From assembly GCA_000002435.2 (NCBI GenBank), contig CM018790.1: DNA of 64,000 nt; one strand, written 5' to 3'. Positions 14,326 to 51,539 of the stretch are shown here, piece by piece; position 1 is the stretch's first letter, and each line of letters starts with the position of its first letter. The position numbers were made by a program, and so were the translations under genes. The notes below the pieces were generated by a model that searched no databases, was not told the DNA's origin, and was given only the letters and a program-made list of their open reading frames with translations. This DNA comes from Giardia intestinalis (taxonomy: Eukaryota).

Positions 14326-14362
14326 CGTCTTGGGGACTCGGCGGAAAAACAAAAAAAGACAG

Positions 14363-15721: not shown

Positions 15722-15825
15722 TAAATGGGAATTTTAGAACAGTGCATTATTCAGCGGAGGCAGTTTCTACTTGCAGGCTGTGATTGTGTGTGATTGTGTC
15801 CTGACGGTTTGAGATTAATTAAGAA

Positions 15826-21922: not shown

Positions 21923-22908
21923 CTGCGGCATAGAGCTCTGCGAGGCGGGGCGCCAGGGGGACGCGCGGCCGAGGCATGTATCTCGACAAATTTACTGCCC
22001 GGGCCTACTTGACCTTGGTGTACTCCCCCTTGTAGTAATACTGGCAGATGCACCGGACGGCCAGAAGATTCTGCTGTCTATTAAACGACGCATCGAATTG
22101 CCGGTCAGAGTAGATGTATAGCTTTTAGCTTGCACCCACGCGAGAGCTCATCCCAAGGACGCCAAGCGCAGTGCCTGCACCAGTCGAAAGACCATTATAA
22201 CTAGGACAGGATCGTAGCAGCAACCTTTCAGGGACGCGCTGATTGCAAACGGATCGGTAGCGTCGAGATTCCGAAGCTTTGAGAGAATGACATGAAGTGC
22301 AGTGGAGTGGCTCTCACAGCCAAAGCAGCTTGCTGGGCAGAATTGTTCTCCCTTCCGACCTTCAGTGTCGGGGGAAAACGGAACGGCACACGCACGAGTG
22401 GTGAAGTTTCCTGCTCCGAGCATGCCTTCTGTTATGCAAAACGTTCGCAGTGAAAGACCGTTGTTCTGGAGAGCAGAGTAAAAGTCGCACGTGACTGTAT
22501 CGTACGGCTTCGTCTGAGTCACCCGAGGTTCCAGGAAGTAGTTCTGCTCTTCAGCCTGATCATCTTCTTCTACCACCTTCTTAGAGCGTTTTCCTTTCTT
22601 TCCTTTTTTGTGCTTCGCGTTGTACTTTTCGATGTCTTCCACTGCTTTAGTATATTCGGGCGGGTGAGGCTTTGGCGCCGGCTCCTTGATCAGGCCGTAG
22701 ATGGTCTTCGAAAACTCGTGGAGGGTCATGCCCTTGGAAATGAGATTTGTCAGGGCTTGGTCCCGGACGTCGCTTGTCTGTGAGAGTAACTCGGCACGCT
22801 CGTCGCTGGTCATGTAGGCTGTAGAAACAGGCCTTACGGCAAACACCGACGAAACGTCGATCATGCCGCCTTGGCCGTCGTCCACGAGCACGGGGGGCGC
22901 GGGCTTTC
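21923..22908. repeat. IR2 left arm (~986 bp): inverted-repeat copy covering the last 247 codons and ~225 bp 3' flank of the 2423-aa gene
   Basis: The reverse complement matches 31519..32504 through both edges as far as I read. Encoded amino acids are identical over 247 residues. Boundaries found by where the reverse complement stops matching (ctgcggca... / ...gggctttc). Confidence 0.85.
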
Positions 22909-31518: not shown

Positions 31519-32504
31519 GAAAGCCCGCGCCCCCCGTGCTCGTGGACGACGGCCAAGGCGGCATGATCGACGTTTCGTCGGTGTTTGCCGTAAGGCCTGT
31601 TTCTACAGCCTACATGACCAGCGACGAGCGCGCCGAGTTACTCTCACAGACAAGCGACGTCCGGGACCAAGCCCTGACAAATCTCATTTCCAAGGGCATG
31701 ACCCTCCACGAGTTTTCGAAGACCATCTACGGCCTGATCAAGGAGCCGGCGCCAAAGCCTCACCCGCCCGAATATACTAAAGCAGTGGAAGACATCGAAA
31801 AGTACAACGCGAAGCACAAAAAAGGAAAGAAAGGAAAACGCTCTAAGAAGGTGGTAGAAGAAGATGATCAGGCTGAAGAGCAGAACTACTTCCTGGAACC
31901 TCGGGTGACTCAGACGAAGCCGTACGATACAGTCACGTGCGACTTTTACTCTGCTCTCCAGAACAACGGTCTTTCACTGCGAACGTTTTGCATAACAGAA
32001 GGCATGCTCGGAGCAGGAAACTTCACCACTCGTGCGTGTGCCGTTCCGTTTTCCCCCGACACTGAAGGTCGGAAGGGAGAACAATTCTGCCCAGCAAGCT
32101 GCTTTGGCTGTGAGAGCCACTCCACTGCACTTCATGTCATTCTCTCAAAGCTTCGGAATCTCGACGCTACCGATCCGTTTGCAATCAGCGCGTCCCTGAA
32201 AGGTTGCTGCTACGATCCTGTCCTAGTTATAATGGTCTTTCGACTGGTGCAGGCACTGCGCTTGGCGTCCTTGGGATGAGCTCTCGCGTGGGTGCAAGCT
32301 AAAAGCTATACATCTACTCTGACCGGCAATTCGATGCGTCGTTTAATAGACAGCAGAATCTTCTGGCCGTCCGGTGCATCTGCCAGTATTACTACAAGGG
32401 GGAGTACACCAAGGTCAAGTAGGCCCGGGCAGTAAATTTGTCGAGATACATGCCTCGGCCGCGCGTCCCCCTGGCGCCCCGCCTCGCAGAGCTCTATGCC
32501 GCAG
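31519..32504. repeat. IR2 right arm (~986 bp), inverted copy of 21923..22908
   Basis: See the left arm. It is inserted immediately after an A-rich tract (caaaaaagtacaaactaatttga) and ends 50 bp from the HCMP stop. Confidence 0.85.
31536..32279 (+). pseudogene. duplicated 3' fragment (C-terminal 247 aa) of the 2423-aa gene; truncated copy, possibly expressible as a stand-alone C-terminal domain
   Basis: 100% amino-acid identity to the C-terminus of 22148..29419. In-frame TGA just upstream, a GTG track start, and the first ATG at MIDVSS. An A-rich promoter-like tract lies directly upstream. Confidence 0.5.
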
Positions 32505-35482: not shown

Positions 35483-38215
35483 ATGCCAGTGTCGGCTTCT
35501 GTAGCCGGTAGATGTTTGTCTCTTTACGGCGCTCTGATGGACCACCGAGTAGCGTTTAAGGTCCCTCGGCTGCTATACAAGGATTTTCTCTGCGCCCTTT
35601 TGGGTGAACGCCACCAGGACCAGATACTACTCTCTGTCATCGTCTTCCGTGTTCTGCGTAAGGCTGCAATAAAAACTGGCGTCATTGGTGCTCTGACTAC
35701 TTTAGTGCGCTATTATGCCAATACAAACTCACGTGTGATAGCCAATCAGAAGGTTCTGACCAGACTTGAGAAAGCTGACTGGCAGTTTTACAAGCTCCCA
35801 TTTACGGATAGAGCCGAAATACTTGACGCGGTTTTTTCTGCAACACTCGTGATGTGCCGTTCTGGAGACACCGTGGACGCCCAAGGTGCTCTGATTTCCA
35901 GGCAGCCTGCAGGGATTAAGATTTCAAACATGAAGTGCATTGGATACGACGCTCTGTCTGCAGAATACTACATTCTTGGAGGCACAAATTACATCATAAA
36001 AGTCGACTTCACGGATACGAGCCCAAGTGAAGATCTGCCCTCTTCAGATCCCGTAATACACAGGCTTTCTGTCTCTGACACGACTACAACCGCACCACGT
36101 AGCTTTGAGCGTGCAGTCCTTATTGAGCCAATCTCATTTGTTTTGGATGCGCCTCTCCTCCTTTGCGATCCTGACTTCAACATTTCCTTAAAGCACTATA
36201 GGGTGCTAGACGAATCTGTTGATGCATATATCGACCCGCTAACCAACGAAAAGGAGGAGCCAGCGAATAGTGCAGAGGATCCTATTGAGCCCCAATCGCC
36301 TTCTCATGTATCCGAAGGGGCTATAGATTCAGTAAGTCTGCGGTCCAGCGCGTCGAGTGACGACTCCTACTATTCATCAGAAGGAGACGACGATTATCAC
36401 ACAACTGACAGTAGTAGATGGGGCAACTCTGACCCTACTGCTCAGAGGAGCCTTATTTCCAAAATTCCCGGTCAGTACAATCTTGTGTTTAGTAAGTTCC
36501 GTCGGAAACTACTTACCGATCGCTTCTTTTCGTATTATGGACATATTCAAGGAAGATATGTGGAGATCTCCAATAGCACATCACTCCACGGCTTTCTTCT
36601 AAACTTTTATGATTCCATGATTACTAAGGAGCAAATTGAAACATTGGTTACATCTTTTGTTGCCGCGCCTACTGACAATCCTCCCTCGGATATCCCTTGG
36701 GCTCCGTTGGCTCTACGCACTAGCAAATCCATTGCTGACACTTCCGTGGATACTGCTTCCATGCTGCTTGAAGCCTTTGTCCCCCACTCGAGTTCAGCTT
36801 ATCTCGGGCTGATTCAGACTGCCGGCCTCCGTCTTCTTGACCTGGCTGTATCCCCTTTTGCCTCTCATCTCAATGTATTGTCACAGGCCCTGTTCACCTC
36901 AAGTACTATGGAAAGTCTTCTACCAATGCAAGAGGAAAGAGAGTTTTATGCAGAGCTCCGAAACACACAGATGCAAAGCGAGCCTGTGGCCTCTCGCTTT
37001 GCTTACATGGCGCAGTTACCACTCTCATCGCTCTCTGCCACTTGTAGCGCAAAGCAAATATCCACTGCCCATCGGCTAACATCGTTACTATTTGTGGACG
37101 CATTTCCTGAGGAAAGCAACCACTTTGTTCACTATTTGGGTAAAACTCATGAGCACTTGGACGACGAGCAACCAAAGGACCGAAAGCGAAGTGCTGCCTT
37201 AAATTTGGGTCCGGCAGCAAAGATGCGCGAAACTGAACGAATAGAAAGTAGACGTGCATTACTCGAACAACTGAAACACGAATTAAACCCTGAAAGTAGC
37301 AACCTGATATTAAAAATGCTTTCGGAGGTACGCGGCGGTTGGTTCCAGAAAGAGTGCATAGCTGAGGGGAAGGATAAAGATAGTGAGCCAACGCGCAAGC
37401 GCAAGTTGTCGATGGACCAAGGTGCAACTTGCCACTTAGCAGGAGACAAGGAGCCCAATGCTGTCAGCGCCAAGAATCGCATTCCGTCCATTACAGTGTT
37501 TTCGTTTACAAACGAGGCTGAGCTAGATAACTACATTCGCTTTTTAGAAGTTCAAACGTTTCACCACATCCTCTCAGAAATTGTCGCATTTTATGTTTCT
37601 ACGGCAGACAATGACAACATTTATGTACACAGGTCCTTTAGCCAACAGCGTGAAAAGTTTCTCTCTCGCTATAACCCCGTCCTCAACTTGCTAGTTGCGC
37701 TAAACACGGAGTACCGCATGTGTCTGCGAGAGGTGCGCCAGGATTTCACTGCTGCTAAGCAGTCTATGGGCATCCGATTTATGCCAGAGCATGTCGGGTT
37801 TCTCCACAAGTTTCCATACTATTATTGGAACATGCAAACGCTCCCATTACAAGACATTACGTTAGCAAGCTTGTGGTCGTTTATGCGAATATGGGGAATT
37901 TTAGATCCCGCTACTTCAGAGGCCGGGGATAACTTTCTAGATAGTCCAGACGGTCAGCATTGCAACGCCATAATCACGTCTCTCATTCAGGAGCTTGGAA
38001 TTGAAAACCCAGAGTTTCTCAACTCGGCTGAGTCAGACACGTTAGACAGCGAAGAGACGCACAATAGTAATAGTAATGGTGACGAAAGTAGCAAGGAGTC
38101 AGAATACATCCCGACAGACGCCACCAAGCGTCAGCTTAAACGGCTAGCAAAGTCGCAGAAGAAAATGGTCAGCGATAGCAGCTACATGAGTTATGATGGC
38201 GAGTCCAGCTCGTAA
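35483..38215 (+). CDS. hypothetical protein (910 aa)
   Basis: Intact ORF with the start context gatgataaaaaATGcca. No family recognised. Confidence 0.65.
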   Translation: MPVSASVAGRCLSLYGALMDHRVAFKVPRLLYKDFLCALLGERHQDQILLSVIVFRVLRKAAIKTGVIGALTTLVRYYANTNSRVIANQKVLTRLEKADWQFYKLPFTDRAEILDAVFSATLVMCRSGDTVDAQGALISRQPAGIKISNMKCIGYDALSAEYYILGGTNYIIKVDFTDTSPSEDLPSSDPVIHRLSVSDTTTTAPRSFERAVLIEPISFVLDAPLLLCDPDFNISLKHYRVLDESVDAYIDPLTNEKEEPANSAEDPIEPQSPSHVSEGAIDSVSLRSSASSDDSYYSSEGDDDYHTTDSSRWGNSDPTAQRSLISKIPGQYNLVFSKFRRKLLTDRFFSYYGHIQGRYVEISNSTSLHGFLLNFYDSMITKEQIETLVTSFVAAPTDNPPSDIPWAPLALRTSKSIADTSVDTASMLLEAFVPHSSSAYLGLIQTAGLRLLDLAVSPFASHLNVLSQALFTSSTMESLLPMQEEREFYAELRNTQMQSEPVASRFAYMAQLPLSSLSATCSAKQISTAHRLTSLLFVDAFPEESNHFVHYLGKTHEHLDDEQPKDRKRSAALNLGPAAKMRETERIESRRALLEQLKHELNPESSNLILKMLSEVRGGWFQKECIAEGKDKDSEPTRKRKLSMDQGATCHLAGDKEPNAVSAKNRIPSITVFSFTNEAELDNYIRFLEVQTFHHILSEIVAFYVSTADNDNIYVHRSFSQQREKFLSRYNPVLNLLVALNTEYRMCLREVRQDFTAAKQSMGIRFMPEHVGFLHKFPYYYWNMQTLPLQDITLASLWSFMRIWGILDPATSEAGDNFLDSPDGQHCNAIITSLIQELGIENPEFLNSAESDTLDSEETHNSNSNGDESSKESEYIPTDATKRQLKRLAKSQKKMVSDSSYMSYDGESSS

Positions 38216-40047
38216 CGTGCTAAAGACTCAGCAAGACAAAACAGCTCGTTGTGCTGCAAACACGCTAGGTCCACCCAACCTTGACGAGGGCCGGTGTCAA
38301 CGAGAGCCCACTTCCCTTCTGTTCGCACTAAAGCGACTATCTCGTTTTGCCGTATCTTGATGCAGCTAATGGAATTGGATATTCCAATGTAATCTGCCGG
38401 ATCGAAAGTGGCTAGGACATAAACCAATATGCCCTGCATACTAGTATGTTTGGCCCTGTGCATCCGTTTGCATCTGGGCAAGGGGATTGCGGGATCAAAG
38501 AATGGGATCCCAATGGCGTTGTAATATTTTTCGAAGAGCGGCCAGTTTGTAAACAAAAACTCAGTTACCTTTTGGCTCACGCTTATTGAAAAGTTGTTGT
38601 TGGGGTCATTCAAGATGCACATGTAAAAGACCTGTTTAAAGCTTTGCGGAGTCATTTTGGTAACATCGATGGCGTCCATTATGTGGCAGCAGAGTATCAT
38701 TATGCTCCGAAGCAAAATGAAACGAGACAAGGGCAGAACCCTGAAGATGAACTCTGCAGCTATTTCTCCCTTGTTCTCGCGAGTGCATGGATTTCCAGAT
38801 ACAAACGATCTTGCAGAGGAACTGCTGTGTTGGATGTGGTTTATGGGCATGACTGAGGAGGGGCTTCCTTTGCAATCTTCCAAGAGGAGCTCAGTGCTAT
38901 TGTCTGTTGAACCACAACCTTCGTCGGTCCCCGTTATATCATCCACCATCTGCTGTGTGTGATAGTATGGGCCAACGCCGTAAGATCCCAGTGGGTTGTA
39001 TTCATAGGACTGATACGTATCATCTTCTTGTGCAACATCCACATGGGAAGAATTTGTATCCAGTTCTTTGCTCATGCTATCGTTGGCAGCATTGGAAGTC
39101 GTTGAGAAACCAAGTGATGTTCTATCACACACAACCTGATCGGTAACAATCTTCGTTTGCTCAGATAGAGCTGAGTCTAGCATAGGTGATGGCTGAAGAC
39201 TAAACGTCTCCGGTTCCTCGGCGAGCTCCTCGTGTGTGCCTTCAGAACTAAATAAAGAGCTTGCTGCTGAAGATTCCACAGAGTCCTCACCAAAGAGAAA
39301 TGCGTATTTCTCCTGAGCACCTAGGTCCATGCCTGCAGTTTTGGAGAGAACTCCGTCAACTAATAAATTCAAACTTCCAACATCTCGTCGACAAACGGTA
39401 TAGTCAAAACCCTGGCTAAAAACCTGTGAATGCACGTCAGGGAAATCCGTGGCCTGGAGAACAGTGCTATCCTTGTACTTAAGAAGAAGTCCGTTAAACT
39501 GAGTCCAAAGCCTAGGCGGAATAATGGACTCGGGAAGCTTTTTAAGGTAGAACTTGATGGCATCCGCAACGGAGTGTGCAGTAATGCCAGGGACATGTTC
39601 AAAATTGATAGACCCAGCTCGAGCAACATGCGCCATTATCCAGCTTTCCATACGCTTATCTCCACTACATCGGAAAATTCCCTCAACTGCGTATCGACGA
39701 TCCCTAAGCAGGTAATTGATGGCGTTTTCAACAAAACGCGTGAGGCATCTGTTTTCTAGCCATAGCTGATCTTCGTAAGATAGCTCATAGAGAGGCCTAG
39801 TTCCCCGGCTCAACATAACAGTATATGTGGATGGTAGCCACCCGCAGTCACCTGCTTCTCTCTTGCGCCCATATATCCACGTCCTCTGAGGACTCACGCA
39901 ATTCTCCGGTTCATATATAACATCAATTACGTCTCCGACGACGGCTGTTAGATACTGTGCACTGTCTATCATGGACGGAAGATGCTCTTTTAAAAAATCC
40001 CGGACCACGACAACGCTGTGCGATGTGTGGACAGAGTTCTGAGACAT
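38191..40047 (-). CDS. SH3 domain - RhoGAP domain protein
   Basis: The N-terminus is SH3-like (VVVVRDFLKEHLPSMIDSAQYLTAVVGDVIDVIYEPEN...GWLPSTYTV). The RhoGAP region has an EGIFRCSG arginine-finger motif and a downstream helical block. I take the ATG at 40047 (ctgcaaaataaaATGtct). The track start at 40107 is upstream and lacks that context. Confidence 0.7.
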   Translation of the reverse strand: MSQNSVHTSHSVVVVRDFLKEHLPSMIDSAQYLTAVVGDVIDVIYEPENCVSPQRTWIYGRKREAGDCGWLPSTYTVMLSRGTRPLYELSYEDQLWLENRCLTRFVENAINYLLRDRRYAVEGIFRCSGDKRMESWIMAHVARAGSINFEHVPGITAHSVADAIKFYLKKLPESIIPPRLWTQFNGLLLKYKDSTVLQATDFPDVHSQVFSQGFDYTVCRRDVGSLNLLVDGVLSKTAGMDLGAQEKYAFLFGEDSVESSAASSLFSSEGTHEELAEEPETFSLQPSPMLDSALSEQTKIVTDQVVCDRTSLGFSTTSNAANDSMSKELDTNSSHVDVAQEDDTYQSYEYNPLGSYGVGPYYHTQQMVDDITGTDEGCGSTDNSTELLLEDCKGSPSSVMPINHIQHSSSSARSFVSGNPCTRENKGEIAAEFIFRVLPLSRFILLRSIMILCCHIMDAIDVTKMTPQSFKQVFYMCILNDPNNNFSISVSQKVTEFLFTNWPLFEKYYNAIGIPFFDPAIPLPRCKRMHRAKHTSMQGILVYVLATFDPADYIGISNSISCIKIRQNEIVALVRTEGKWALVDTGPRQGWVDLACLQHNELFCLAESLARYELDSPS

Positions 40048-40061
40048 TTTATTTTGCAGAA

Positions 40062-42578
40062 TTAGGAATGTCTGCCTAAGGCCAATACCTGCTTGCAGCT
40101 CATACAATGGGTAGCTTCATCGACATCGCTGGAAACGCTGTACTCGACCTTTCCACAAAGAGCGCACTTGATGGGTCTGCTTGCTGACTTAGCTTTAGAG
40201 AGTATGTCGAAGTAATTAACCACATCCTTGTAGTTAGCTGGCGTCTTATTACGTAGGAAGTTGGCCTGGTTCTGCTCCAGAAACCCGGAATCGGTGCTTG
40301 GGTGCCTGTACAGTACTTCTAGGTTCCCGTCCAATACATGTCTTCGAGTGACGGGCTTGGTCTGTTGTGAGCATGGAAGTTCATTCTCTCTAGCAATGTG
40401 TTTCTCAGTGAGGCATTGCTTTGTGAGTTCTTGCTCTCGAATATGGGCTTCGACTTCGTCTTGCGTAACAACGATAGGCTTGTAACGGTAGGGCTTTCCT
40501 TCCTCCTTTATTGGAGCATCGACGTCATAATGCCCAGAGCTAGTCATGAGATAGTGATCACCTGCCGATCTGAACGTCTTCCTTAACTCACAACACTCGC
40601 TACTAGATTCAGATGAGATCGAAGGTGTAACCTCTTTCAGCTGAGCTACTTCATTGGAGACCTCTTTCTCAGCCTTAGAGTTTGTTACTTGGGGAATTGC
40701 TGCCACGATCCGTGATGGAATGCTAGGCTGTTTTTCTGTATGTATTATAGAGGCAGAACTCAACACCATGCTATCTGGCAATTTCTTCATTGCCTGCACA
40801 GATCGAATAGACATCAGTGGCTTCGACTGTACTAATCGCCCAGACTCGTCTATCCTTTCTATATTTCCTAGCTCCGCTAGCTGCTCGTCAATTAGGCTTT
40901 TAATGTAGAGCTTATTGAGGTAGAGATCTGACTGGACTCTATTGTACTCTTCCTGCTTCCTTTCGACGTGCTGAATCAAAGCTGGATCGAATCTTATGTT
41001 GCGCTGTTTCCCTGTGGTGCTTTGTGTCTTTGCCTTGACTGTTTTTGAATGAGGTTGCGTCTGGTTATATTGGTACGGCGAATGTTTGAGAAGCGCGTTT
41101 GTTTGCTGTTCATAAATTAGGCTTCTCATGTCATTCGTAGAAAGACCAACGGAATTTGCCGAGTTTGGTCGCATCTTTGGAATCTCCACGTCTTTGCCTA
41201 GTTGTTTGAGATCTGCCTGGATCTTTTCATGGTTAAGTTGTCGCTCTCCTGAGAATAGTCCATTATTTCGGAGATTGACTAGTTCTTTCTCAAATTCTGT
41301 CTCTATATTTGTGAGTTCTTTAGTGCTCATAGTTAGGAGTTTCTTGCAAAAAGTAGAAACATCGTATCCCATGTTCTTCAGTCGCTGCATGTCTTCATGA
41401 GTAAGGTTGAGATCTGGATAGTCGTCTTGATTGTCTGTCTTGCTAGTTAACCCCTGCTTTAGTTTCTGCTGCTCTGCAGCAAGAATGACCAACTGCTTGC
41501 AAAATTTCCGATACGCCTTGATATCCAGCTGCATCTCTCTATCGTTTTGTGCACTGTTGATTAGAAATCCCTTAGAATTAAACTGACTTTTCTGCTGAGA
41601 AGTTATATGCAAAAGCCCCTGGGTATAGCGGCTTCTGGGTAGTTTTTGCTGCTGTAAATTCGTGGAGTAGAGGGGGCGCATGCAGCGATCTTTTGTGCCA
41701 GTGCAATCTCTGCTGTTTGCTGGAACAGGGATGGTATTACAATGAGAGGTGTCCTGGCCTTTACTTGCCGGTGTCTTTGCGCTTGATCTATCGGGATGGT
41801 TACGACTATCTTTGATGGAACTAGCAAATGAAATATCGGTAGTTTCAGAACATTCCTTCTCAGAAGTATCAGAAGCATCCATTTTCAAAGGCCGAATTCT
41901 CTTGTTTCTTTGCTGGGGCATTATGGTCTCTGACTGATCCTCCGGTCTCGGGAATGTGGGTAAGTCGGCACCTGGAGCAGGCGAGTACGGAACTAGGCTA
42001 GGTGAAAGGGCTAGAGAATCCCTGCGGTCTAGAGACTCACGAGAATCAGGCGCTTGCAGTGCCAAGGGTTCAGTGGGTAATATCGCAACTGGAGCCATTG
42101 CAGGCCTATCTGGGTCGACATAAACAGTTAACTCTTTGGAATCACCCTTCCTAAGCGAGGAAGCCGTTACCTTTGAATGCTCGGCAGCGCAAGGCGCCCT
42201 TCTGCCTCTGACAGTCAGGTCTATCGCTTCTGGCCCAAAAGAGCGAGAAGTTTGGAGGGAATCTTTTGCCATGTGCTTATCTGAACTGAATATAAGCGCA
42301 GCGCTTTGAAACTGCTTAGACTGTGCTGCACTGAGCGGCCGTACAGATGACTGTCCAGCCACTCTACTAGGCTGAACCGTTATCTTTGCAGATTTTCCAC
42401 TACGTGGTTGGCGTGCAGGAAAGATATTGGTCATTACACTGCCGCTTGTCCCCGGACGATAGGACGAAGTTCCCCCCAGCGAATCGCGTCGATTTGCATA
42501 TCTCTGCCGCCGCGCCTCTGCCTTCTCGTAAAGTATTTCTCCTATGCGTTGCGGCGCTACAAAATAGGAGCTAGCCAT
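40062..42578 (-). CDS. hypothetical coiled-coil protein with C-terminal CxxC...CxxC zinc-ribbon-like motif
   Basis: ORF of ~838 aa. The C-terminus has CALCGKVEYSV...HCMSCKQVL. The track start at 42602 is a TTG, so I take the first ATG at 42578. It lies 14 nt upstream of the RhoGAP gene start. Confidence 0.6.
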   Translation of the reverse strand: MASSYFVAPQRIGEILYEKAEARRQRYANRRDSLGGTSSYRPGTSGSVMTNIFPARQPRSGKSAKITVQPSRVAGQSSVRPLSAAQSKQFQSAALIFSSDKHMAKDSLQTSRSFGPEAIDLTVRGRRAPCAAEHSKVTASSLRKGDSKELTVYVDPDRPAMAPVAILPTEPLALQAPDSRESLDRRDSLALSPSLVPYSPAPGADLPTFPRPEDQSETIMPQQRNKRIRPLKMDASDTSEKECSETTDISFASSIKDSRNHPDRSSAKTPASKGQDTSHCNTIPVPANSRDCTGTKDRCMRPLYSTNLQQQKLPRSRYTQGLLHITSQQKSQFNSKGFLINSAQNDREMQLDIKAYRKFCKQLVILAAEQQKLKQGLTSKTDNQDDYPDLNLTHEDMQRLKNMGYDVSTFCKKLLTMSTKELTNIETEFEKELVNLRNNGLFSGERQLNHEKIQADLKQLGKDVEIPKMRPNSANSVGLSTNDMRSLIYEQQTNALLKHSPYQYNQTQPHSKTVKAKTQSTTGKQRNIRFDPALIQHVERKQEEYNRVQSDLYLNKLYIKSLIDEQLAELGNIERIDESGRLVQSKPLMSIRSVQAMKKLPDSMVLSSASIIHTEKQPSIPSRIVAAIPQVTNSKAEKEVSNEVAQLKEVTPSISSESSSECCELRKTFRSAGDHYLMTSSGHYDVDAPIKEEGKPYRYKPIVVTQDEVEAHIREQELTKQCLTEKHIARENELPCSQQTKPVTRRHVLDGNLEVLYRHPSTDSGFLEQNQANFLRNKTPANYKDVVNYFDILSKAKSASRPIKCALCGKVEYSVSSDVDEATHCMSCKQVLALGRHS

Positions 42579-42881
42579 CAACGCAACGACAAGAGCTTTC
42601 AAAGCGAAAATTTATCGCATAGGAGCACAAAGAAGACCGTTTACATAGTCTAAAGGGAGCTTCTTTTACCAGCAGAGAAATAGATTCTGCTGCCAGCGTT
42701 ACGATTACTTGAAAATCCCGGCCTGTGCTAAGTCGTAAAAAGCGTGATAAACAATAGCTCCATCTGCTAACTCCATCGTGACACTCCCACCAAAATCCCC
42801 TACAACGGAAAATACAGACTCGATATCGATTAGCTGCTCTTCCTCTGTCATGGGTCTTTTTGTTTAGAAGGCATGCTCTTC

Positions 42882-43382
42882 TCAGCAAGCAAAGCTCTCT
42901 GTGATTTCATTTTGAAGCTCAACGCGAAGGTGTAAGGGGTGGACCATTGCGTTGTGAGCAGGAATGAGCTCAACTGTGACATTATATCCAATCAAAGACA
43001 GGGCCCCACGAATTGCCCCGCAAACTATTTGCGAATAAACTAAACGGTCCAGCTGAGCAGGGAGCTTCACATATTTCTCGAGCGGATTGTTTTCAACGAA
43101 AATGGTGTAGGCACTACATTCGGGCTCACAGCCTGTAATGGTACCGGAGGCGCAGCCCAGAAACATTTTTAGACCACCTAGCACACCAGTGGCTGTGTGG
43201 TGGAACTTTGTGCAGATAGAAGATGAGTTTGCCAAGTACTCGTCGACACACCGTTGTCCGATGTTGAAGCCCATCCTGTCCAGCTCCTTTGTGACCATTC
43301 CTGGGTCATGAAGTTCCTCTAAGAGAGATGTGACAATAGCCCCATAGGTTACGGCAAAGAACTCAGCGTTGAAACCAACCAT
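42882..43382 (-). CDS. BET3: TRAPP complex subunit Bet3 (TRAPPC3)
   Basis: FAVTYGAIVTSLLEE...ELDRMGFNIGQRCVDEYLA...IFVENNPL...LVYSQIVCGAIRGAL aligns by eye to Bet3/TRAPPC3. Confidence 0.8.
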   Translation of the reverse strand: MVGFNAEFFAVTYGAIVTSLLEELHDPGMVTKELDRMGFNIGQRCVDEYLANSSSICTKFHHTATGVLGGLKMFLGCASGTITGCEPECSAYTIFVENNPLEKYVKLPAQLDRLVYSQIVCGAIRGALSLIGYNVTVELIPAHNAMVHPLHLRVELQNEITESFAC

Positions 43383-43455
43383 TTTAAAGTGAGCTCGTCA
43401 AGAACGCTATTGTAGGTCCTGCAACTCCCCATGTATCTTGTTTACTATCTAGAGC

Positions 43456-44169
43456 TTAGCTTGCCATGCGCTCCAAGAGTCGTGCTTGATAGATGGCCTC
43501 ATCAACGCTCATCTGCTGCGTCTTGTGGGCCCATTCGTGTTTCAACTGAGTAACACGTAGCTGACTTGGGGAGGTCTTCGCATCCATAAGTGCATCAATA
43601 TTGACGAGGGTATCTGCGTCGGTGTTGCTCTCCAAGGCTTTCGTTATGGACTCAACGTGCGTTCGCAAACAAGGCTTAACTTGATAGCCCTTTTTATAGT
43701 CATTATACCGCGCAAATAGCTGCCTAACTTCGCCTTCCGAGTGCTGCAGATCGTTGAGTTCGATGTCTCTTGCAATTGCAGCGTAGTCTTCGCCATACTT
43801 GGCCATAGCCGCCTCCACAAATTCTCTGTAAGGCCGAAACATGGCCACACGCTTGACCTCCTCGTATATTGAGCAACGTATCCCCTTGTTTTCTATAGTT
43901 CCAACTTTCTCCTGCTTCTCTTCGGGTAGTGGCGCTGCACATCGGGCAGGATTCATCCTGTCCTGATACATGGCAGACCTACTGTCAACAAAGTGATCTG
44001 TCACTTTTGTTGTTCGCTGGCACGCCTTCTTGGGGTTGACCATTGCGAGAAGGCCGTTCGCCTTGTAGAATTCATGAACAGAAAGCCCTTGCTTCTTAAG
44101 GCGCTTGGGCTCTTTCCCACGGTAGATCTTCCGCGCACGCATGCGCTTCTGACCAACACGCAGAGGCAT
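43456..44169 (-). CDS. hypothetical basic protein (237 aa), possibly nucleolar/ribosome-biogenesis related
   Basis: Intact ORF with a Lys/Arg-rich N-terminus. No confident family. Confidence 0.5.
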   Translation of the reverse strand: MPLRVGQKRMRARKIYRGKEPKRLKKQGLSVHEFYKANGLLAMVNPKKACQRTTKVTDHFVDSRSAMYQDRMNPARCAAPLPEEKQEKVGTIENKGIRCSIYEEVKRVAMFRPYREFVEAAMAKYGEDYAAIARDIELNDLQHSEGEVRQLFARYNDYKKGYQVKPCLRTHVESITKALESNTDADTLVNIDALMDAKTSPSQLRVTQLKHEWAHKTQQMSVDEAIYQARLLERMAS

Positions 44170-44255
44170 TGCTCGCCGACAGCACGAGGGTTGTTTAAAA
44201 TTACAACAATTTAAAATTCACTTCATAGGATCATTTTTTACCCGGCCTGAATTCG

Positions 44256-44870
44256 ATGGGTGCCTACAAGTACGTTCAGGAGCTCTGGCGCAAGAAGCAA
44301 TCCGAGGCCCTCCACTACCTCTTCCGTCTCCGCACATGGGAGTACCGCCAGCTGAACGCGATCAAGCGCTGCAGCCACCCGACTCGCCCTGAGAAGGCTC
44401 GCCGTCTGGGCTACAAGGCCAAGCGGGGCTATGTTGTCTATCGTGTGCGTGTGCGCCGCGGCGGACGTAAACGCCAATGCGTCCACGGCATCTCGTATGG
44501 TAAGCCGAGGAACATTGGTATCGTCGGCCTGAAGCCTAGCCGCTCGCTACGCGCGCTTGCCGAGCAAAAGGTCGGGCGTCGTCTTCCGTCTCTCCGCGTC
44601 TTGAATTCCTACTGGGTTGCCCAGGACGGGTCCTACAAGTGGTACGAGGTCATTCTCATCGATCCGTTCCACCCGTGGATCCGCAACGATCCAAAGATTA
44701 ATTGGATCTGCAACCCGGTCATGAAGCGCCGCGAGTGTCGCGGTCTCACCTCTGCCGGTCGCAAGGCCCGCGGTCTCCACAACAAGGGTATCGGTGCGAT
44801 GAAGCTGAGGCCGTCGAAGAGAGCCGCGTGGAAGCGCAACCACACCCGCTCCCTCCGCCGCTACAGATAG
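44256..44870 (+). CDS. RPL15: 60S ribosomal protein L15e
   Basis: [17 protein letters not shown]...[24 protein letters not shown]...LRVLNSYWV...VILIDPFH...RGLTSAGRK matches L15e almost residue for residue. AGTAAAC lies 14 nt after the stop (44884-44890). Confidence 0.9.
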
Positions 44871-44905
44871 CCTTGCTGCTGCGAGTAAACATCCCGTCAT
44901 TTACA

Positions 44906-45646
44906 CTAGAGGAAGTTCTCCACGAGAGCTTGGTGCATGTCGGCCAGGATGTTCTTCGATGTGAGCTGTCTGATCTTGAAGATAGACTCTATCACTGAGA
45001 TCTCTGTCGCCGACGTGTCCCTGCCAACAAACCCACACCAGTCATTAACCACAACACCAGAGCCTATGGTCGGCGAGCCCCGGTTGACGGTCCCGGCGCA
45101 GACGGGGACTGTTAGCAGCGACGCCAGCTCGTCCTGCTCTTGCCGGCTTGTCATAGGATGGACGAGGCACCCACTATTATTAAATTTGGAGTACGTCCCT
45201 ACAAGGGCCTGCCCTGCGATGGTTTGTCGGAAAACCTCAACTCCGAGGACGTCTGAGATAATCTCCTCTGTCTCTCTGTCCAAGTCAGGATGAATCAGCG
45301 CTACGTGGTCGTTGCATGCTATCACATTTCCAAGAGCCGAGAGCCTCTCGTCGACGCGCTGAACGATAATATCATCTGGAAGGCTATTCCGTATGTGAAG
45401 CATCTCCTGGTCCTGAACATTGTTAGGAAGGAGCAGCCCCTTTCGGTTCCCAACAGTGGTGCGCCCGACGACGATGCTTGAATTGATTGTTGTGCGAATG
45501 ACCGGCAGACCGTGAGGAACGAGGATAGACTCTATGGCCGAGTAGTAGTTCATGGCCCCTGACGGCGCGACAAGCGCATACCTATTTGTGAGAAGGGTGA
45601 AGACGCCGATGTCGCTGGAGGACTCGTACGTGACACGATGGGTCAT
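44906..45646 (-). CDS. EIF6: eukaryotic translation initiation factor 6 (eIF6)
   Basis: [67 protein letters not shown] is near-identical to conserved eIF6 blocks. The ATG is at 45646, and the track start at 45649 is a TTG. Confidence 0.9.
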
Positions 45647-45771
45647 CAATTATTATTCCTAAGAAAAATAGACATGGAAACTATAAGTTCATGCGCAATA
45701 CTCAGAAAAATAAAAAAATGTTTTCATTTTGAAATGAGATTGCTTCCTTATTTTGGCCGGACCGCGACAGC

Positions 45772-46425
45772 ATGCCCAGGATCGTTAGGCGCGACGAGGA
45801 GAACGTCTACTACTCGAAGTATCTCAACGACTGCATCATGGAGGCAGAACTTCACGAGTTCTTTTCGCGTGAGCTGGTCGACGCCGGCTATGCCTCCTGC
45901 TCTCTCTGTCGTACCATCGACTCGATCTGCGTGATAATCCAGTGTGCCGAGCCAGAGGTGGTTATGGGCGACAACCACTACCGTCTTCATAAGATCGAGT
46001 ATCTCCTCGCTGGCAGGTTCATGTGCGATCCCAAGAACTTCAACATTTGGGTCGACAAGATAATTAAGCGCGGGCTTAGCGCCGAGATCATGGTTGATAA
46101 CCTTCGTGCAAAGCTCGAGGAGGCGATGCCGATCCGCAGAGCAGCCTACTCAATCATCAGAACCGCGATGCGTGCCGGGGCTGCAGGCTGCGAGGTCATT
46201 GTTGCCGGTAAGCTCCGCGCTCAGCGTGCCCGTGCAAACAAGTTTAAAGAGGGCTGCTTGATCTCGACGGGCCACCCGAAGCGTATCTTCCTGGCAGAGG
46301 CGACGCGCCACATAAAGATGAGGCAGGGTGTTATTGGCGTCAAGGTCCGCATCTATAACCCGAACATCCGTGGTGCGGTCATGCCGGATAAGATTGAGAT
46401 AGGAGCGTTCTCCCGCCAAAAGTAA
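45772..46425 (+). CDS. RPS3: 40S ribosomal protein S3
   Basis: KH-domain region and the C-terminal block AGCEVIVAGKLRAQRARANKFKEGCLISTGHP...RQGVIGVKVRI match RPS3. It shares a 122-bp AT-rich divergent promoter with eIF6. Confidence 0.85.
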   Translation: MPRIVRRDEENVYYSKYLNDCIMEAELHEFFSRELVDAGYASCSLCRTIDSICVIIQCAEPEVVMGDNHYRLHKIEYLLAGRFMCDPKNFNIWVDKIIKRGLSAEIMVDNLRAKLEEAMPIRRAAYSIIRTAMRAGAAGCEVIVAGKLRAQRARANKFKEGCLISTGHPKRIFLAEATRHIKMRQGVIGVKVRIYNPNIRGAVMPDKIEIGAFSRQK

Positions 46426-46635
46426 ATACGCTCCCACAACGCTTTCCCTTCTGCGTCAAAGTGTGGTTGCGGCCTCGTCTCTCCCATAGTATCACGGTTC
46501 GTGATGCGTGGCCATACAATCGTACACAGATCCAGTATCTTCTCGCCTAGCAGCTTGTTTGTAGGATGATACCGGAGAACCGCCCGGCGGGTCTCTTCCT
46601 CAATACTCTCGTCAGGATACCTCTGGGCCAGCACT

Positions 46636-48291
46636 AGGCGCGGGCCACGCGGAGAGACTCGGGGAACCGGACGAGAGGCGCCCTGCGTCGGACTGGGGCA
46701 GCGGGTGAGCGGGGGCCAGGGCCGCGAGGGATTGCTTCCGGGCCTCTGCCTCACGCCGACCCTCGCCGCCTGCTCAGATATCTGCACGGAGCCGCGTGGA
46801 GCAGCTGGAAACGCATTTACTACCTAAGTCACATCTAAGTCTACGCTTTGCCTCTACAGAGGAACCACCAGCAGAGGAAGCCGACGAGGCCCCCGACGAC
46901 GATGACAGCGGCCACAGCGATGCCAGCGATGGCGCCAGTGGAGAGGCCGCTCTTGTTGGCGCTAGAAGGCACGCACTTTTTATCATCACCTAGAACAAAT
47001 CCATCGTTACACTCTGTGCACGTGCCGTCGGGACATGATTTGCAGTTAGGAAGATCGCAGCCAGCAGGCGCGTCCGCGCAGGTGTTCGGAGCCGATCCGT
47101 CGCCGTACGGGCAGTTATCGTAGCACCCGCCCTTGTAGAGCTTCTGCGTCTGGGTACACGCCGTGCAGGTTCCATCTGTGCTTCCCGACCCAGGCGTGCA
47201 CATGTTTGCCTGGGCCTGCTGCGTGCAGGCGCCGTTGACCGGGACATACCCGCTCTTGCATTTGGAGCAGTACGTTTTGCCATTGATCGTCACGTCGCAC
47301 TTGCCGGCGGCGCAGTTTGTCGCGCCGGGGTCTGCGGCGTCGCACGGCGTTGGGGCAGAGACCGCTGCTTTTGCTTCTTCTACTACTTGGACCGCCTGGG
47401 CTAATTGCAGAATAAAGCTCACAAAAAGAAGCTTACTCAACATTGATTCTGTGGCTATGTATTGGTATTTGTAAAAAGACTTGCTGTGTGAACTATCAAC
47501 TAGATTGTCAGTTGATAAAGCTGATGCAAACGCGGACTCATAGGAGAAAGAATCCTCCTAGCTTACAAAGTGCTAAGCAATGCGTACTAGATAATAACAG
47601 CTGAATAAGAATAGAACATTCAAGTGCCTCGGTATGAAAACTGAAAGTGAACTGAACTTTGATTACACGGAGAGCCACTTGCTGTTATGCTGGAGCTTTA
47701 CCAGTGCAGAATCATGTAATCGAACGCACATTTAGGTAGTAGACGCATCCACATGCTGCGTCGCACAAAAAGGCCTTATAGGCTGCCCAGTGGACCCACG
47801 CTCGTTGTCTTAGTGGTCGGAACAAAGTTTGGGGATGTTACGGCTGGGTTATCGCTTGCGGGCATGGTTTAGTAATCCCACGAGTAAATTTTCGCTTAAT
47901 TCCTAGCCAGACCGGACGAGAGTTGGTCATGGATAGCATAACGAGAGAGTCCTCTCCAGTGATATATTCAAAGTCTGGGCATTCCTCGGCCGCTCCATGA
48001 GGATATGCTCTGTCTGGATATCCATGCCGATCTGCCTTGAATTCAAGCCTTCTCGCAGGCTCTCTGCTCTACCCGTGGCGCCTCTCCTTGGTCTTCCTTC
48101 GTGGCTGGTGAGGCTCCGGTCGCTGTCCTTTTTTAGATGCCCCGTCTGTCAGGAGCTGCCATCGGGCTCTCCACTGGCTGGGCCCTCGGTGTCCGGTCAG
48201 CTGTGGCTCGGGCAGTGCTCCTACAGTCGTAGTCACCTGGGTCCCGGTGGGTCCGGCTGGTGGGGAGGCAGGGGTATGGGGCGGTGGGGGC
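46636..48291. repeat. IR1 left arm (~1.65 kb) carrying VSP copy 1 plus ~850 bp non-coding DNA
   Basis: The reverse complement matches 49697..51352 wherever I compared (VSP ORF, 5' flank, GC-rich inner end). Mirror relation: left = 97988 - right. Boundaries set by loss of identity (cgcgggccac / caccgcccc). Confidence 0.85.
46841..47443 (-). CDS. variant-specific surface protein (VSP), 200 aa, copy 1
   Basis: Signal peptide MLSKLLFVSFILQLAQA, CXXC motifs (CAAGKC, CSKCKS, CTACTQ, CKSCPDGTCTEC), a GGCY motif, a TM helix, and the invariant C-terminal CRGKA. AGTAAAT polyA signal ~20 nt after the stop. Confidence 0.85.
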   Translation of the reverse strand: MLSKLLFVSFILQLAQAVQVVEEAKAAVSAPTPCDAADPGATNCAAGKCDVTINGKTYCSKCKSGYVPVNGACTQQAQANMCTPGSGSTDGTCTACTQTQKLYKGGCYDNCPYGDGSAPNTCADAPAGCDLPNCKSCPDGTCTECNDGFVLGDDKKCVPSSANKSGLSTGAIAGIAVAAVIVVGGLVGFLCWWFLCRGKA

Positions 48292-48492
48292 CGGTCAGCA
48301 GGCATCGGCGAGAGGCGGCCTGACTGCGCATGCAGATGCGAGTGTTGGATGGGACGCCATGGGCTGGATGAAGCAGCCCCGTGCAAGGGCCAAAGCCCTG
48401 CCTGCAGAGTCATGCTCTAAGACAGTCATTTTAAAACAAAAACAATAAGGAGACACACTTAAAACGGCCGTTCCCAAAATAATAAATCCACG

Positions 48493-49350
48493 ATGCGCGC
48501 TGCTCCGCCTGGGGCTGCACCAACAGCTCCTAGGGTGTCTGAGTTTACCTTCGAGCAGCTTCGTGGACTACTGGGTAACGTGCTGGGCAGAGGTGCCATG
48601 GGTACAGTCTACGCTCTCAGGGGCTATCAGGGCCTCGCCGTGAAGGAGATCCGGCTCGACAGCCTGAACGAGAAGGCTATCGACGCCCTCATGCTTGAAC
48701 TAGATGTTCTCCCTGGCCTTCACCACCCAGGGGTTCTCAGATACCACCAAGTGATCAAAGGCAACGACCTCGTCTACATCGTCATGGATCGCCACAGCAG
48801 GACTCTTAATGACCTCGTTATCGAGTGCAAGCAGGGGGACAGACCTATCTCTGTTACTATGATCCTCTCAAGTGTGAGGCAGCTCGTCGCCGCCCTCGCC
48901 TACCTCCACAGCGTCAGCGGAGTGGGTGCCGACGGCCACCCCTACCAGGGCCTCGTCCACCGCGACCTCAAGCCTGCCAACGTCCTCATCAGTAAAAAGG
49001 GAAAGCGCTTCATCATCGCCGACTTCGGCCTCTGCAAGGACGCCCTGAGATGCGGGAGCACCTATGCAGGGACGCCACTATACATGGCCCCCGAGACCCT
49101 TATCCGCAACAAGACCAGTCCCGCCTCCGACGTGTGGAGCCTCGGGGTCATCCTCTACGAGCTTACTACTCTGAGGAGACCGGACTTCTTGGGGGGCAAG
49201 GAGCCAGCAGAGGTCTTCATCGATGGGTGGAGGCCGGACCTGAGCGGTGTCACTGATGGCTTCATAAAGAGTGTTCTGGAGCGGATATTCGTGCTGGAGC
49301 CAGAGAGGAGGCCGACGGCCAGGGAGCTGTGCGAGATGCTCAGACAGTAA
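48493..49350 (+). CDS. NEK-family serine/threonine kinase, catalytically competent (285 aa), in IR1 spacer
   Basis: GRGAMGTVYA loop, AVKEI lysine, HRDLKPANVL, DFG, PLYMAPE. Start context aaaataataaatccacgATGcgc. AGTAAAC (49346-49352) overlaps the TAA stop. Confidence 0.8.
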   Translation: MRAAPPGAAPTAPRVSEFTFEQLRGLLGNVLGRGAMGTVYALRGYQGLAVKEIRLDSLNEKAIDALMLELDVLPGLHHPGVLRYHQVIKGNDLVYIVMDRHSRTLNDLVIECKQGDRPISVTMILSSVRQLVAALAYLHSVSGVGADGHPYQGLVHRDLKPANVLISKKGKRFIIADFGLCKDALRCGSTYAGTPLYMAPETLIRNKTSPASDVWSLGVILYELTTLRRPDFLGGKEPAEVFIDGWRPDLSGVTDGFIKSVLERIFVLEPERRPTARELCEMLRQ

Positions 49351-49371
49351 ACAGCGACCTGTCCTCTCTGC

Positions 49372-49483
49372 CACAGCTTTTATGATAGCGGCCTCCCATG
49401 GCCACGCAGACCGTGTCAAGGTGCTCCTAGAGAAGGAAGGGAGGATGCAGGATAGCTATGGACAGACAGCCCTCATGGTCTGA
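49372..49483 (+). pseudogene. out-of-frame single ankyrin-repeat remnant downstream of the NEK kinase
   Basis: TAFMIAASHGHADRVKVLLEKEGRMQDSYGQTALMV is an ankyrin-repeat-like sequence in a different frame, directly 3' of the kinase stop and ending before the IR1 right arm. Confidence 0.35.
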
Positions 49484-49696
49484 GGGCGAGGATGAATGTA
49501 GGCAGCAGGCAGAGGCTCCCCTCTACTCCTGCAAAGGGACGACCAGGAGCCCAGTGTGATCGTCGGTGCCTGGCTTATATCTCGTGCAGCGCGGGCTGGA
49601 GATCAGACACAATCACCCTAGCAAACAGAGTAGGGATCACTCACCACTCCGCTGGCCCACCGGACCCAGGGGCGCATACAACCATCACCAACCTCA

Positions 49697-51352
49697 GCCC
49701 TCACCGCCCCATACCCCTGCCTCCCCACCAGCCGGACCCACCGGGACCCAGGTGACTACGACTGTAGGAGCACTGCCCGAGCCACAGCTGACCGGACACC
49801 GAGGGCCCAGCCAGTGGAGAGCCCGATGGCAGCTCCTGACAGACGGGGCATCTAAAAAAGGACAGCGACCGGAGCCTCACCAGCCACGAAGGAAGACCAA
49901 GGAGAGGCGCCACGGGTAGAGCAGAGAGCCTGCGAGAAGGCTTGAATTCAAGGCAGATCGGCATGGATATCCAGACAGAGCATATCCTCATGGAGCGGCC
50001 GAGGAATGCCCAGACTTTGAATATATCACTGGAGAGGACTCTCTCGTTATGCTATCCATGACCAACTCTCGTCCGGTCTGGCTAGGAATTAAGCGAAAAT
50101 TTACTCGTGGGATTACTAAACCATGCCCGCAAGCGATAACCCAGCCGTAACATCCCCAAACTTTGTTCCGACCACTAAGACAACGAGCGTGGGTCCACTG
50201 GGCAGCCTATAAGGCCTTTTTGTGCGACGCAGCATGTGGATGCGTCTACTACCTAAATGTGCGTTCGATTACATGATTCTGCACTGGTAAAGCTCCAGCA
50301 TAACAGCAAGTGGCTCTCCGTGTAATCAAAGTTCAGTTCACTTTCAGTTTTCATACCGAGGCACTTGAATGTTCTATTCTTATTCAGCTGTTATTATCTA
50401 GTACGCATTGCTTAGCACTTTGTAAGCTAGGAGGATTCTTTCTCCTATGAGTCCGCGTTTGCATCAGCTTTATCAACTGACAATCTAGTTGATAGTTCAC
50501 ACAGCAAGTCTTTTTACAAATACCAATACATAGCCACAGAATCAATGTTGAGTAAGCTTCTTTTTGTGAGCTTTATTCTGCAATTAGCCCAGGCGGTCCA
50601 AGTAGTAGAAGAAGCAAAAGCAGCGGTCTCTGCCCCAACGCCGTGCGACGCCGCAGACCCCGGCGCGACAAACTGCGCCGCCGGCAAGTGCGACGTGACG
50701 ATCAATGGCAAAACGTACTGCTCCAAATGCAAGAGCGGGTATGTCCCGGTCAACGGCGCCTGCACGCAGCAGGCCCAGGCAAACATGTGCACGCCTGGGT
50801 CGGGAAGCACAGATGGAACCTGCACGGCGTGTACCCAGACGCAGAAGCTCTACAAGGGCGGGTGCTACGATAACTGCCCGTACGGCGACGGATCGGCTCC
50901 GAACACCTGCGCGGACGCGCCTGCTGGCTGCGATCTTCCTAACTGCAAATCATGTCCCGACGGCACGTGCACAGAGTGTAACGATGGATTTGTTCTAGGT
51001 GATGATAAAAAGTGCGTGCCTTCTAGCGCCAACAAGAGCGGCCTCTCCACTGGCGCCATCGCTGGCATCGCTGTGGCCGCTGTCATCGTCGTCGGGGGCC
51101 TCGTCGGCTTCCTCTGCTGGTGGTTCCTCTGTAGAGGCAAAGCGTAGACTTAGATGTGACTTAGGTAGTAAATGCGTTTCCAGCTGCTCCACGCGGCTCC
51201 GTGCAGATATCTGAGCAGGCGGCGAGGGTCGGCGTGAGGCAGAGGCCCGGAAGCAATCCCTCGCGGCCCTGGCCCCCGCTCACCCGCTGCCCCAGTCCGA
51301 CGCAGGGCGCCTCTCGTCCGGTTCCCCGAGTCTCTCCGCGTGGCCCGCGCTG
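49697..51352. repeat. IR1 right arm (~1.65 kb) carrying VSP copy 2
   Basis: Mirror image of 46636..48291. Confidence 0.85.
50545..51147 (+). CDS. variant-specific surface protein (VSP), 200 aa, copy 2 (identical to copy 1)
   Basis: Identical translation to 46841..47443. AGTAAAT at 51167-51173. Confidence 0.85.
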   Translation: MLSKLLFVSFILQLAQAVQVVEEAKAAVSAPTPCDAADPGATNCAAGKCDVTINGKTYCSKCKSGYVPVNGACTQQAQANMCTPGSGSTDGTCTACTQTQKLYKGGCYDNCPYGDGSAPNTCADAPAGCDLPNCKSCPDGTCTECNDGFVLGDDKKCVPSSANKSGLSTGAIAGIAVAAVIVVGGLVGFLCWWFLCRGKA

Positions 51353-51458: not shown

Positions 51459-51531
51459 GGGCGGTTAGCTCAGTTGGTAGAGCGCGTGCTTCGCAAGCAC
51501 GAGGCCGGGGGTTCGACTCCCCCATCGTCCA
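51459..51531 (+). tRNA. tRNA-Ala (anticodon CGC)
   Basis: Cloverleaf folded by hand. Acceptor GGGCGGT/ATCGTCC with a G3:U70 pair (the Ala identity element). D-arm GCTC-AGTTGGTA-GAGC. Anticodon stem CGTGC/GCACG with loop TTCGCAA. T-arm GGGGG-TTCGACT-CCCCC. Discriminator A. CCA is not encoded. Confidence 0.9.
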
Positions 51532-51539
51532 CTTTTCAA

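Follow-up and report, generated by a model that had tools for sequence, protein, structure and literature searches.

Organization of the Locus

The analysis covered a window of 64,000 nucleotides (nt) from Giardia intestinalis (assembly GCA_000002435.2, contig CM018790.1), and the element in question is a large inverted repeat at positions 46638–51350 that carries one copy of a variant-specific surface protein (VSP) gene in each arm and a NEK-family kinase gene in the unique spacer between the arms. The locus is the documented identical inverted pair vsp36.1/36.2 (GL50803_117473/117472) of G. intestinalis WB, assemblage A1, and is therefore already known, kinase included. The favored interpretation, to which a probability of roughly 75% is assigned, is that this documented pair is an inverted duplication homogenized by gene conversion, with the kinase as a passenger. 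The features of the locus and its immediate flanks are as follows:

45772–46425, plus strand: ribosomal protein S3 (RPS3) gene, single-copy left flank
46638–48291, minus strand: left repeat arm (vsp36 copy GL50803_117472/3 with 848 nt of 5′ flank and 203 nt of 3′ flank)
46841–47443, minus strand: VSP gene, left copy, 200 amino acids (aa), matching vsp36 in Additional file 1 of Adam et al. (2010)
48292–49696, no strand: unique spacer, 1405 nt, from the repeat search
48493–49350, plus strand: NEK-family kinase open reading frame (ORF), 285 aa, kinase domain only (Pfam Pkinase, 2.3e-40)
49349–49480, plus strand: ankyrin-repeat remnant, out of frame (+1), ~1.3 repeats (Pfam Ank_2, 31.7 bits)
49697–51350, plus strand: right arm of the inverted repeat, from the repeat search and the base-by-base comparison
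50545–51147, plus strand: VSP gene, right copy, 200 aa, nucleotide-identical to the left copy
51459–51532, plus strand: tRNA-Ala(CGC), 108 nt beyond the right arm, where the single-copy right flank begins (Rfam)

The arms were delimited by a repeat search of the 44–54 kb region and of the whole window, which returned two segments of 1654 nt separated by 1405 nt and scored them as "100%" complementary. A base-by-base comparison revealed one mismatch (48287 C vs. 49701 T), located 5 nt from the inner edge, and a perfect run of 1649 nt (46638–48286 and 49702–51350); past both the outer and the inner arm boundaries the match rate is immediately random. A repeat of 1.65 kb cannot be a product of chance. 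The initial annotation had described inverted VSP arms around a unique spacer of ~1.4 kb with a kinase, which is what the 1654-nt arms, the 1405-nt spacer and the 285-aa kinase ORF amount to. Its boundaries (46636–51352, arms of ~1656 bp) were refined by a few nucleotides to those given above, and its claim that no mismatch separates the arms over the ORFs and ~850 bp of flank holds for the ORFs and fails at the single position in the 5′ flank.

Each arm contains 848 nt of VSP 5′ flank (843 nt up to the mismatch) and 203 nt of 3′ flank. The two VSP ORFs are divergent, with their 5′ ends toward the spacer and 3101 nt between them, and each encodes 200 aa with 20 cysteines (10%), four CXXC motifs, a GGCY motif and a CRGKA tail. 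The protein matches the Pfam VSP family (PF03302, E = 1.3e-28; the best stretch is residues 161–200); the annotated pair of identical 200-aa VSP genes with facing 5′ ends is confirmed. The N-terminus is hydrophobic (MLSKLLFVSFILQLAQA) and is a putative signal peptide; the C-terminus consists of a transmembrane domain followed by the invariant CRGKA, the ORF ending in ...GGLVGFLCWWFLCRGKA*. An initiator (Inr) element CAATGTT that fits the YAATGTT consensus lies at the ATG (50542–50548), and an extended VSP poly(A) signal, ACTTAGGTAGTAAAT, follows directly after the stop codon. Each arm would thus constitute a self-contained VSP expression unit of 848 nt of upstream DNA, Inr, ORF and poly(A) signal, and the pair would therefore represent two loci for one antigen. 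Residues 68–97 of the VSP also score above threshold for Pfam BmKX (60 bits), as do the orthologues; this match probably reflects a resemblance in cysteine spacing.

The left flank carries the genes for ribosomal proteins L15e and S3, and the RPS3 gene (plus strand) ends 212 nt before the left arm. On the other side, the first protein gene after tRNA-Ala(CGC) begins 8 nt on (51540), and the repeat boundaries are in this way wedged between a ribosomal protein gene and a tRNA gene.

The Pair in the Published Record

In WB, 14 identical vsp pairs, termed "inverted pairs," were described by Adam et al. (2010, BMC Genomics 11:424, PMC2996952), four of them head-to-head and 10 tail-to-tail. Gene 36 is listed there as head-to-head with 3′ divergence at 203 nt and an ORF distance of 3102 (Table 5), and vsp36.1/36.2 (GL50803_117473/117472) are listed as HHIP, clade III, 200 aa, with 20 Cys, 4 CXXC and the Inr CAATGTT (Additional file 1). 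The PacBio reference genome of Xu et al. (2020, Sci Data 7:38, PMC7000408) tabulates the same pair on chromosome 2 (Table 2: 117472/117473, <- ->, 200 aa, 3101 bp, NEK), and GL50803_00117472/00117473 are among the 20 identical pairs confirmed by Rodriguez-Walker et al. (2022, bioRxiv 10.1101/2022.03.07.483299).

The window agrees with these records in the length of the protein (200 aa), the 20 Cys and 4 CXXC, the CAATGTT, the 203 nt of 3′ flank and the distance of 3101 nt. It has the properties that characterize an identical inverted VSP pair: identical inverted ORFs 2–4 kb apart, flanks that are identical up to an abrupt divergence and gene identifiers that appear in the published tables. Two differences concern detail: the 5′ identity was given as 729 nt by Adam et al. 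(2010) as against 848 nt in the window, and the DNA between paired genes was called "non-coding" in the abstract of that study, whereas Xu et al. (2020) record the NEK gene there.

Evidence from Independent Assemblies

Identical pairs were formerly suspected to be artefacts of the GL2.0 assembly (Rodriguez-Walker et al. 2022), and contigs of the Sanger assembly ended early at such pairs (Adam et al. 2010), which could favor the view that a single VSP copy was wrongly doubled. Against this view, the pair is present in both the Sanger (Adam et al. 2010) and the PacBio (Xu et al. 2020) assemblies, and two distinct outer junctions occur in independent short-read sets. Three entry points served to gather contigs, namely RPS3, the gene on the right flank and the VSP entry P0121 of ENA, and several independent short-read contigs match the window at 100% identity. 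The RPS3-bearing Logan contigs end at 46667–46669, 30 nt inside the left arm, and the contigs with the right-flank gene begin at 51319–51321, 30–32 nt inside the right arm, whereas one contig with a k141 name (MEGAHIT-style) ends 143 nt inside the arm. With the Logan contigs assumed to be built with k = 31, these breaks lie exactly k − 1 into the arm, where the first k-mer that falls entirely within the arm has two predecessors, and each such sample must therefore hold both junctions. A doubling by the assembly is effectively refuted. Neither the kinase nor the WB VSP translation gave a record when looked up as an exact protein in the sequence index used.

Comparison with Assemblage E and A2-Like Isolates

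In the assemblage E isolate P15, contig ACVC01000363 is syntenic with positions 35762–46450 of the window (88% identity), a synteny that stops 25 nt past the RPS3 stop codon. A single VSP ortholog (198 aa, 83% aa identity) follows RPS3 on the same strand in P15, and nucleotide homology to the WB arm is confined to the VSP ORF plus 331 nt on its 5′ side and 33 nt on its 3′ side. P15 lacks both an inverted repeat and a tRNA at the VSP locus, and the sequence to the right of it bears no relation to the window. As judged from these alignments, the VSP gene adjoining RPS3 is old and was probably once single-copy, and the locus lies at a synteny breakpoint between the assemblages. A segmental inverted duplication of the formerly single-copy VSP locus beside RPS3 would have produced the pair.

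An ENA metagenome contig (L015, 925–1239) encodes the identical 200-aa VSP and parts from the WB arm 33 nt beyond the stop codon, the same point at which homology to P15 and to a further contig (L016) ends. This common end point suggests an ancient conserved unit that extends to just beyond the poly(A) signal, and the divergence of L015 indicates that the same VSP has another 3′ context in some lineage. In P15 (L001), the stretch after the VSP (12500–16900) is gene-poor and has long ORFs in overlapping frames (e.g., 14425–14847). One ORF in this stretch has a YADD motif that hints at a degenerate reverse transcriptase, in keeping with published remarks on retrotransposon relics around VSP pairs.

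The outer boundaries of the repeat recur in genomes that are ~1% divergent from WB. A contig of the A2 isolate DH (AHGT01000024) runs from the right flank to 475 nt inside the arm (98.86% identity over 7.6 kb), an A2-like ENA contig (L011) leads from the left flank across the arm, and further A2-like contigs break at the left boundary (L004–L009) or at the right boundary (DRR256933). Since both outer junctions are found at the same positions outside A1, the inverted duplication is probably older than the A1/A2 split.

At the inner boundary the A2-like genomes depart from WB. Five A2-like contigs (L010–L014) cross it into sequence different from the WB spacer and without the kinase, one of them for 1266 nt, and they share with the WB spacer only ~140 nt that are homologous to its right end. 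Their extensions fall into two types that are ~86% identical, X (L010, L012 and L014) and Y (L011 and L013), which could be the two inner flanks of an A2 repeat or, equally, strain alleles. The center of the pair thus appears to have been remodeled from one sub-assemblage to the next, with the VSP core and the outer boundaries left as they were.

The Spacer and the NEK Kinase

The kinase ORF retains its catalytic motifs (GRGAMG at 32, the lysine of AVKE with VKE at 50, HRD at 156, DFG at 177 and APE at 199), by which the protein is predicted to be active rather than a pseudokinase. The closest solved structure is that of human NEK2 (3.7e-23), followed by NEK7 and NEK1. The protein is 100% identical to an NCBI entry named "Kinase, NEK [Giardia duodenalis]" and its homologues carry the name "Kinase, NEK" as well; in a database of 5.8 billion proteins, the nearest other homologue is only 68% identical. 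The DNA upstream of the ORF is AT-rich, as is typical of promoters in Giardia, and an AGTAAA overlaps the stop codon.

Paralogues extend beyond the end of the kinase ORF into a coiled coil. In WB an ankyrin-repeat remnant follows directly after the kinase stop codon and ends in stop codons; it scores 31.7 bits for Pfam Ank_2 at a cutoff of 27.3 bits and is homologous to the ankyrin region of a P15 NEK-ankyrin gene. Relative to this P15 homologue, ~480 nt between the kinase and ankyrin parts have been lost in WB. The naming rule of Xu et al. (2020) combines a kinase domain and ankyrin repeats in one protein, and the spacer ORF, which stops right after the kinase domain, does not. The spacer kinase is a truncated NEK-ankyrin gene, and the ankyrin remnant is a relic of the longer gene. 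Of the complete and apparently active NEK kinase described initially, the NEK-like character and the intact catalytic motifs stand, whereas completeness does not: the ORF is best read as a truncated NEK-ankyrin derivative. A P15 NEK-ankyrin gene located ~6.4 kb from the P15 VSP has 75% nucleotide identity to the C-terminal part of the WB kinase; it was considered as an ortholog and rejected, the matching region being common to many paralogues.

According to Xu et al. (2020), vsp36 is the only pair with a kinase gene in its spacer; among the six other head-to-head pairs of WB, four contain a reverse-transcriptase remnant and none a kinase. The center would be evolutionarily labile, occupied in WB by a NEK-ankyrin gene that is truncated and has an intact kinase domain. 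Given that the A2-like contigs lack the kinase at the inner boundary, it looks like a passenger that was captured or left behind by rearrangement and not like a required part of the unit. The initial annotation had left open whether the kinase is a hitch-hiker or part of the unit, and these contigs favor the former.

Gene Conversion and Recent Duplication

The near-identity of the arms was initially ascribed either to a very recent duplication or to ongoing gene conversion. A very recent inverted duplication within WB/A1, in which the arms are alike for lack of time and no conversion takes place, is compatible with arms that differ at 1 out of 1654 positions, with the single copy in P15 and with the proposal that identical pairs arose by duplication and transposition, maybe in the evolutionarily recent past (Adam et al. 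2010). It is opposed by the isolates with ~1% divergence that branch at the same outer boundaries and by the contigs that join the arm to the left flank and to the right flank. It is also opposed by a substitution at position 51141, where, with P15 and a further relative (L016) as outgroups, WB carries a derived A (G in the A2-like sequences and in both outgroups) in both arms, as arm-to-arm conversion predicts. If the arms had evolved independently since the split, 8–18 differences would be expected between them in WB and one is seen (Poisson P of about 2e-3 to 2e-7). A very recent duplication is accordingly regarded as an unlikely explanation, and conversion as the better of the two options, on the strength of the outer boundaries shared at ~1% divergence and of the WB-derived base in both arms.

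Between WB and the A2-like sequences, the arms have 31 variable alignment columns, of which 20 fall into the innermost 70 nt and none into 49768–50677. Four of the differences are located in the coding region, where they must be synonymous because the VSP protein is identical, and the remainder in the 3′ flank. The identity of the arms would be maintained by arm-to-arm homologous recombination (gene conversion, concerted evolution) and not by youth alone; gene conversion is likely, though not proven, to be what keeps the arms alike.

Several observations weigh against the combination of an old duplication, gene conversion and a passenger kinase. Divergence between WB and the A2-like sequences is lower in the arms (0.5%) than in the flanks (1.1%), and the 910 nt from 49768 to 50677 (equal to 47311–48220) contain no difference at all. 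This stretch includes 777 nt of VSP upstream DNA (49768–50544), which have no Rfam match and in which ~9 differences are expected from the flank divergence of 1.1% and none is seen (P of about 1e-4). The low divergence of the arms could reflect a recent exchange between lineages or strong constraint instead. The outer junctions in A2 come partly from different samples, and the A2 inverted repeat is deduced from break points in assembly graphs, no single contig spanning it. One contig that is identical to WB (L002, SRR3596240, 45772–46882) passes the left boundary unbroken and stops 245 nt inside the arm. Lastly, the kinase has a plausible promoter and poly(A) signals, and loss of its expression or function is not indicated by any finding. 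As a side observation, the stop of L002 lies in the conserved 3′ end of the VSP gene, and the other left-flank contigs break 30–143 nt into the arm. A search for structured RNA (Rfam) directed at the conserved VSP upstream region returned only the tRNA-Ala and a sub-threshold match, resembling a small nucleolar RNA, inside the kinase ORF.

Inversion of the Spacer and Hairpin RNA

A near-perfect inverted repeat of 1.65 kb is in principle a good substrate for homologous recombination, and nanopore-based calls predict 162 intra-isolate inversions in WB. On these grounds the pair might be a programmed invertible cassette, a regulatory switch in which exchange between the arms inverts the spacer and thereby sets VSP dosage, the choice of allele or the expression of the kinase. 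Because the 848-nt upstream regions lie inside the arms, a flip changes neither VSP gene: both genes, their upstream regions, Inr elements and poly(A) signals would be unaltered and only the orientation of the kinase relative to the chromosome would change. No recombinase is present among the genes called within ~10 kb to the left or ~7 kb to the right of the repeat, where the Pfam families are TRAPP, Nop16, L15e, eIF6, S3, Rdx, AAA, Ank and RhoGAP.

The other identical pairs also speak against such a switch: most are tail-to-tail (Adam et al. 2010; Xu et al. 2020), and the other head-to-head pairs contain reverse-transcriptase remnants and not a kinase (Xu et al. 2020). So do the A2-like contigs without a kinase beside the arm, the view of Adam et al. 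(2010) that VSP switching is epigenetic and the absence of the gene identifiers 117472/117473 from the supplements of the nanopore structural-variant paper. The functional invertible VSP-kinase cassette proposed in the initial annotation is thus abandoned as extremely improbable: a flip alters neither VSP unit, no recombinase is nearby and the kinase is missing in the A2-like contigs.

Flipping as such is a separate matter. Inversion of the spacer could be a side effect of crossing-over between the arms, one that alters neither VSP gene, and given the 1.65-kb arms such flipping by homologous recombination may well occur. One A2-like contig (L011), in which the left flank and the arm are followed by sequence similar to the right end of the WB spacer, was considered as evidence for a flipped spacer and set aside: phasing across an inverted repeat of 1.65 kb is beyond a short-read assembler, and either join is therefore arbitrary.

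The same geometry would also suit a source of hairpin RNA. With the plus-strand RPS3 gene ending 212 nt short of the left arm and with complementary arms, read-through could yield an antisense-vsp36/kinase/sense-vsp36 transcript with 1.65 kb of double-stranded RNA that feeds VSP silencing of the RNA interference type. Geometry is the sole support for this idea in the window itself, and abundant antisense transcripts have been reported in Giardia (PMC1885649). Read-through from RPS3 may end at the VSP poly(A) signal or at other terminators, and the tail-to-tail majority of identical pairs has a different geometry (PMC2996952, PMC7000408). A role as a hairpin source is considered highly unlikely.

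A broader variant joins these elements: a repeat older than the A1/A2 split, in which recombination between the arms both homogenizes them and flips the spacer (two isomers per clone) and hairpin transcripts possibly feed VSP silencing. It is a speculative combination and rather improbable. If true, it would make identical inverted pairs a functional class and not the debris of duplications.

A Second Inverted Repeat in the Window

A second inverted repeat is located at 21923–22908 and 31519–32504, with arms of 986 nt that are reported as 100% identical and lie 8610 nt apart; it contains no VSP gene. It duplicates the last 247 codons and the downstream flank of a gene of 2423 aa (22148–29419, minus strand), and the truncated gene copy (31536–32279, plus strand) lies beside a gene for a cysteine-rich membrane protein (32555–34978). 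Logan contigs of 8670 nt (8610 + 30 + 30) are found in at least 20 samples, which indicates that this repeat is real. In some samples a contig (L029, 9466 nt) runs through the left boundary, and these samples may lack the second repeat.

Significance

The vsp36 structure itself is nothing new, being tabulated, kinase included, in the WB reference-genome paper (PMC7000408). The additions to the published record are modest and consist of the single copy in assemblage E, the outer boundaries shared with A2-like isolates, the sub-assemblage-specific spacer and the truncation of the NEK gene. A possibly useful observation is that remodeling between sub-assemblages affected the center of the pair and spared its VSP core and outer boundaries. 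The results hint that identical VSP pairs are held by concerted evolution, which bears on the evolution of the VSP repertoire and on the homogeneity of repeated and allelic DNA in Giardia.

Comparison with Other Inverted-Repeat Systems

The closest relatives of vsp36 are the other identical pairs of the same genome. The vsp1267 pair (GL50803_112208/d112208) and other tail-to-tail pairs likewise consist of identical inverted ORFs 2–4 kb apart with an abrupt divergence of the flanks; they have pseudogenes or nothing between the copies, whereas vsp36 is head-to-head and encloses a kinase.

In bacterial invertons such as Hin and Fim, short repeats are acted upon by a dedicated recombinase, and inversion re-positions a promoter or a coding segment. 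As at vsp36, inverted repeats flank a segment that can be inverted. The arms of vsp36 are 1.65 kb long in contrast to these short repeats, and two hallmarks of a DNA-inversion switch are lacking, there being no nearby recombinase and no inversion that would change the joining of promoter and gene or the coding sequence; inversion would leave the VSP units unaltered.

The inverted repeat of plastid genomes and the palindromes of sex chromosomes have large arms that are kept identical by gene conversion around a spacer that can flip. They resemble vsp36 in their kilobase-scale, near-identical inverted arms around a unique spacer. The vsp36 pair differs in that its arms are much shorter, it is nuclear and it belongs to an antigen gene family. 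What it appears to share with them is concerted evolution, its arms being identical within a lineage and different between lineages.

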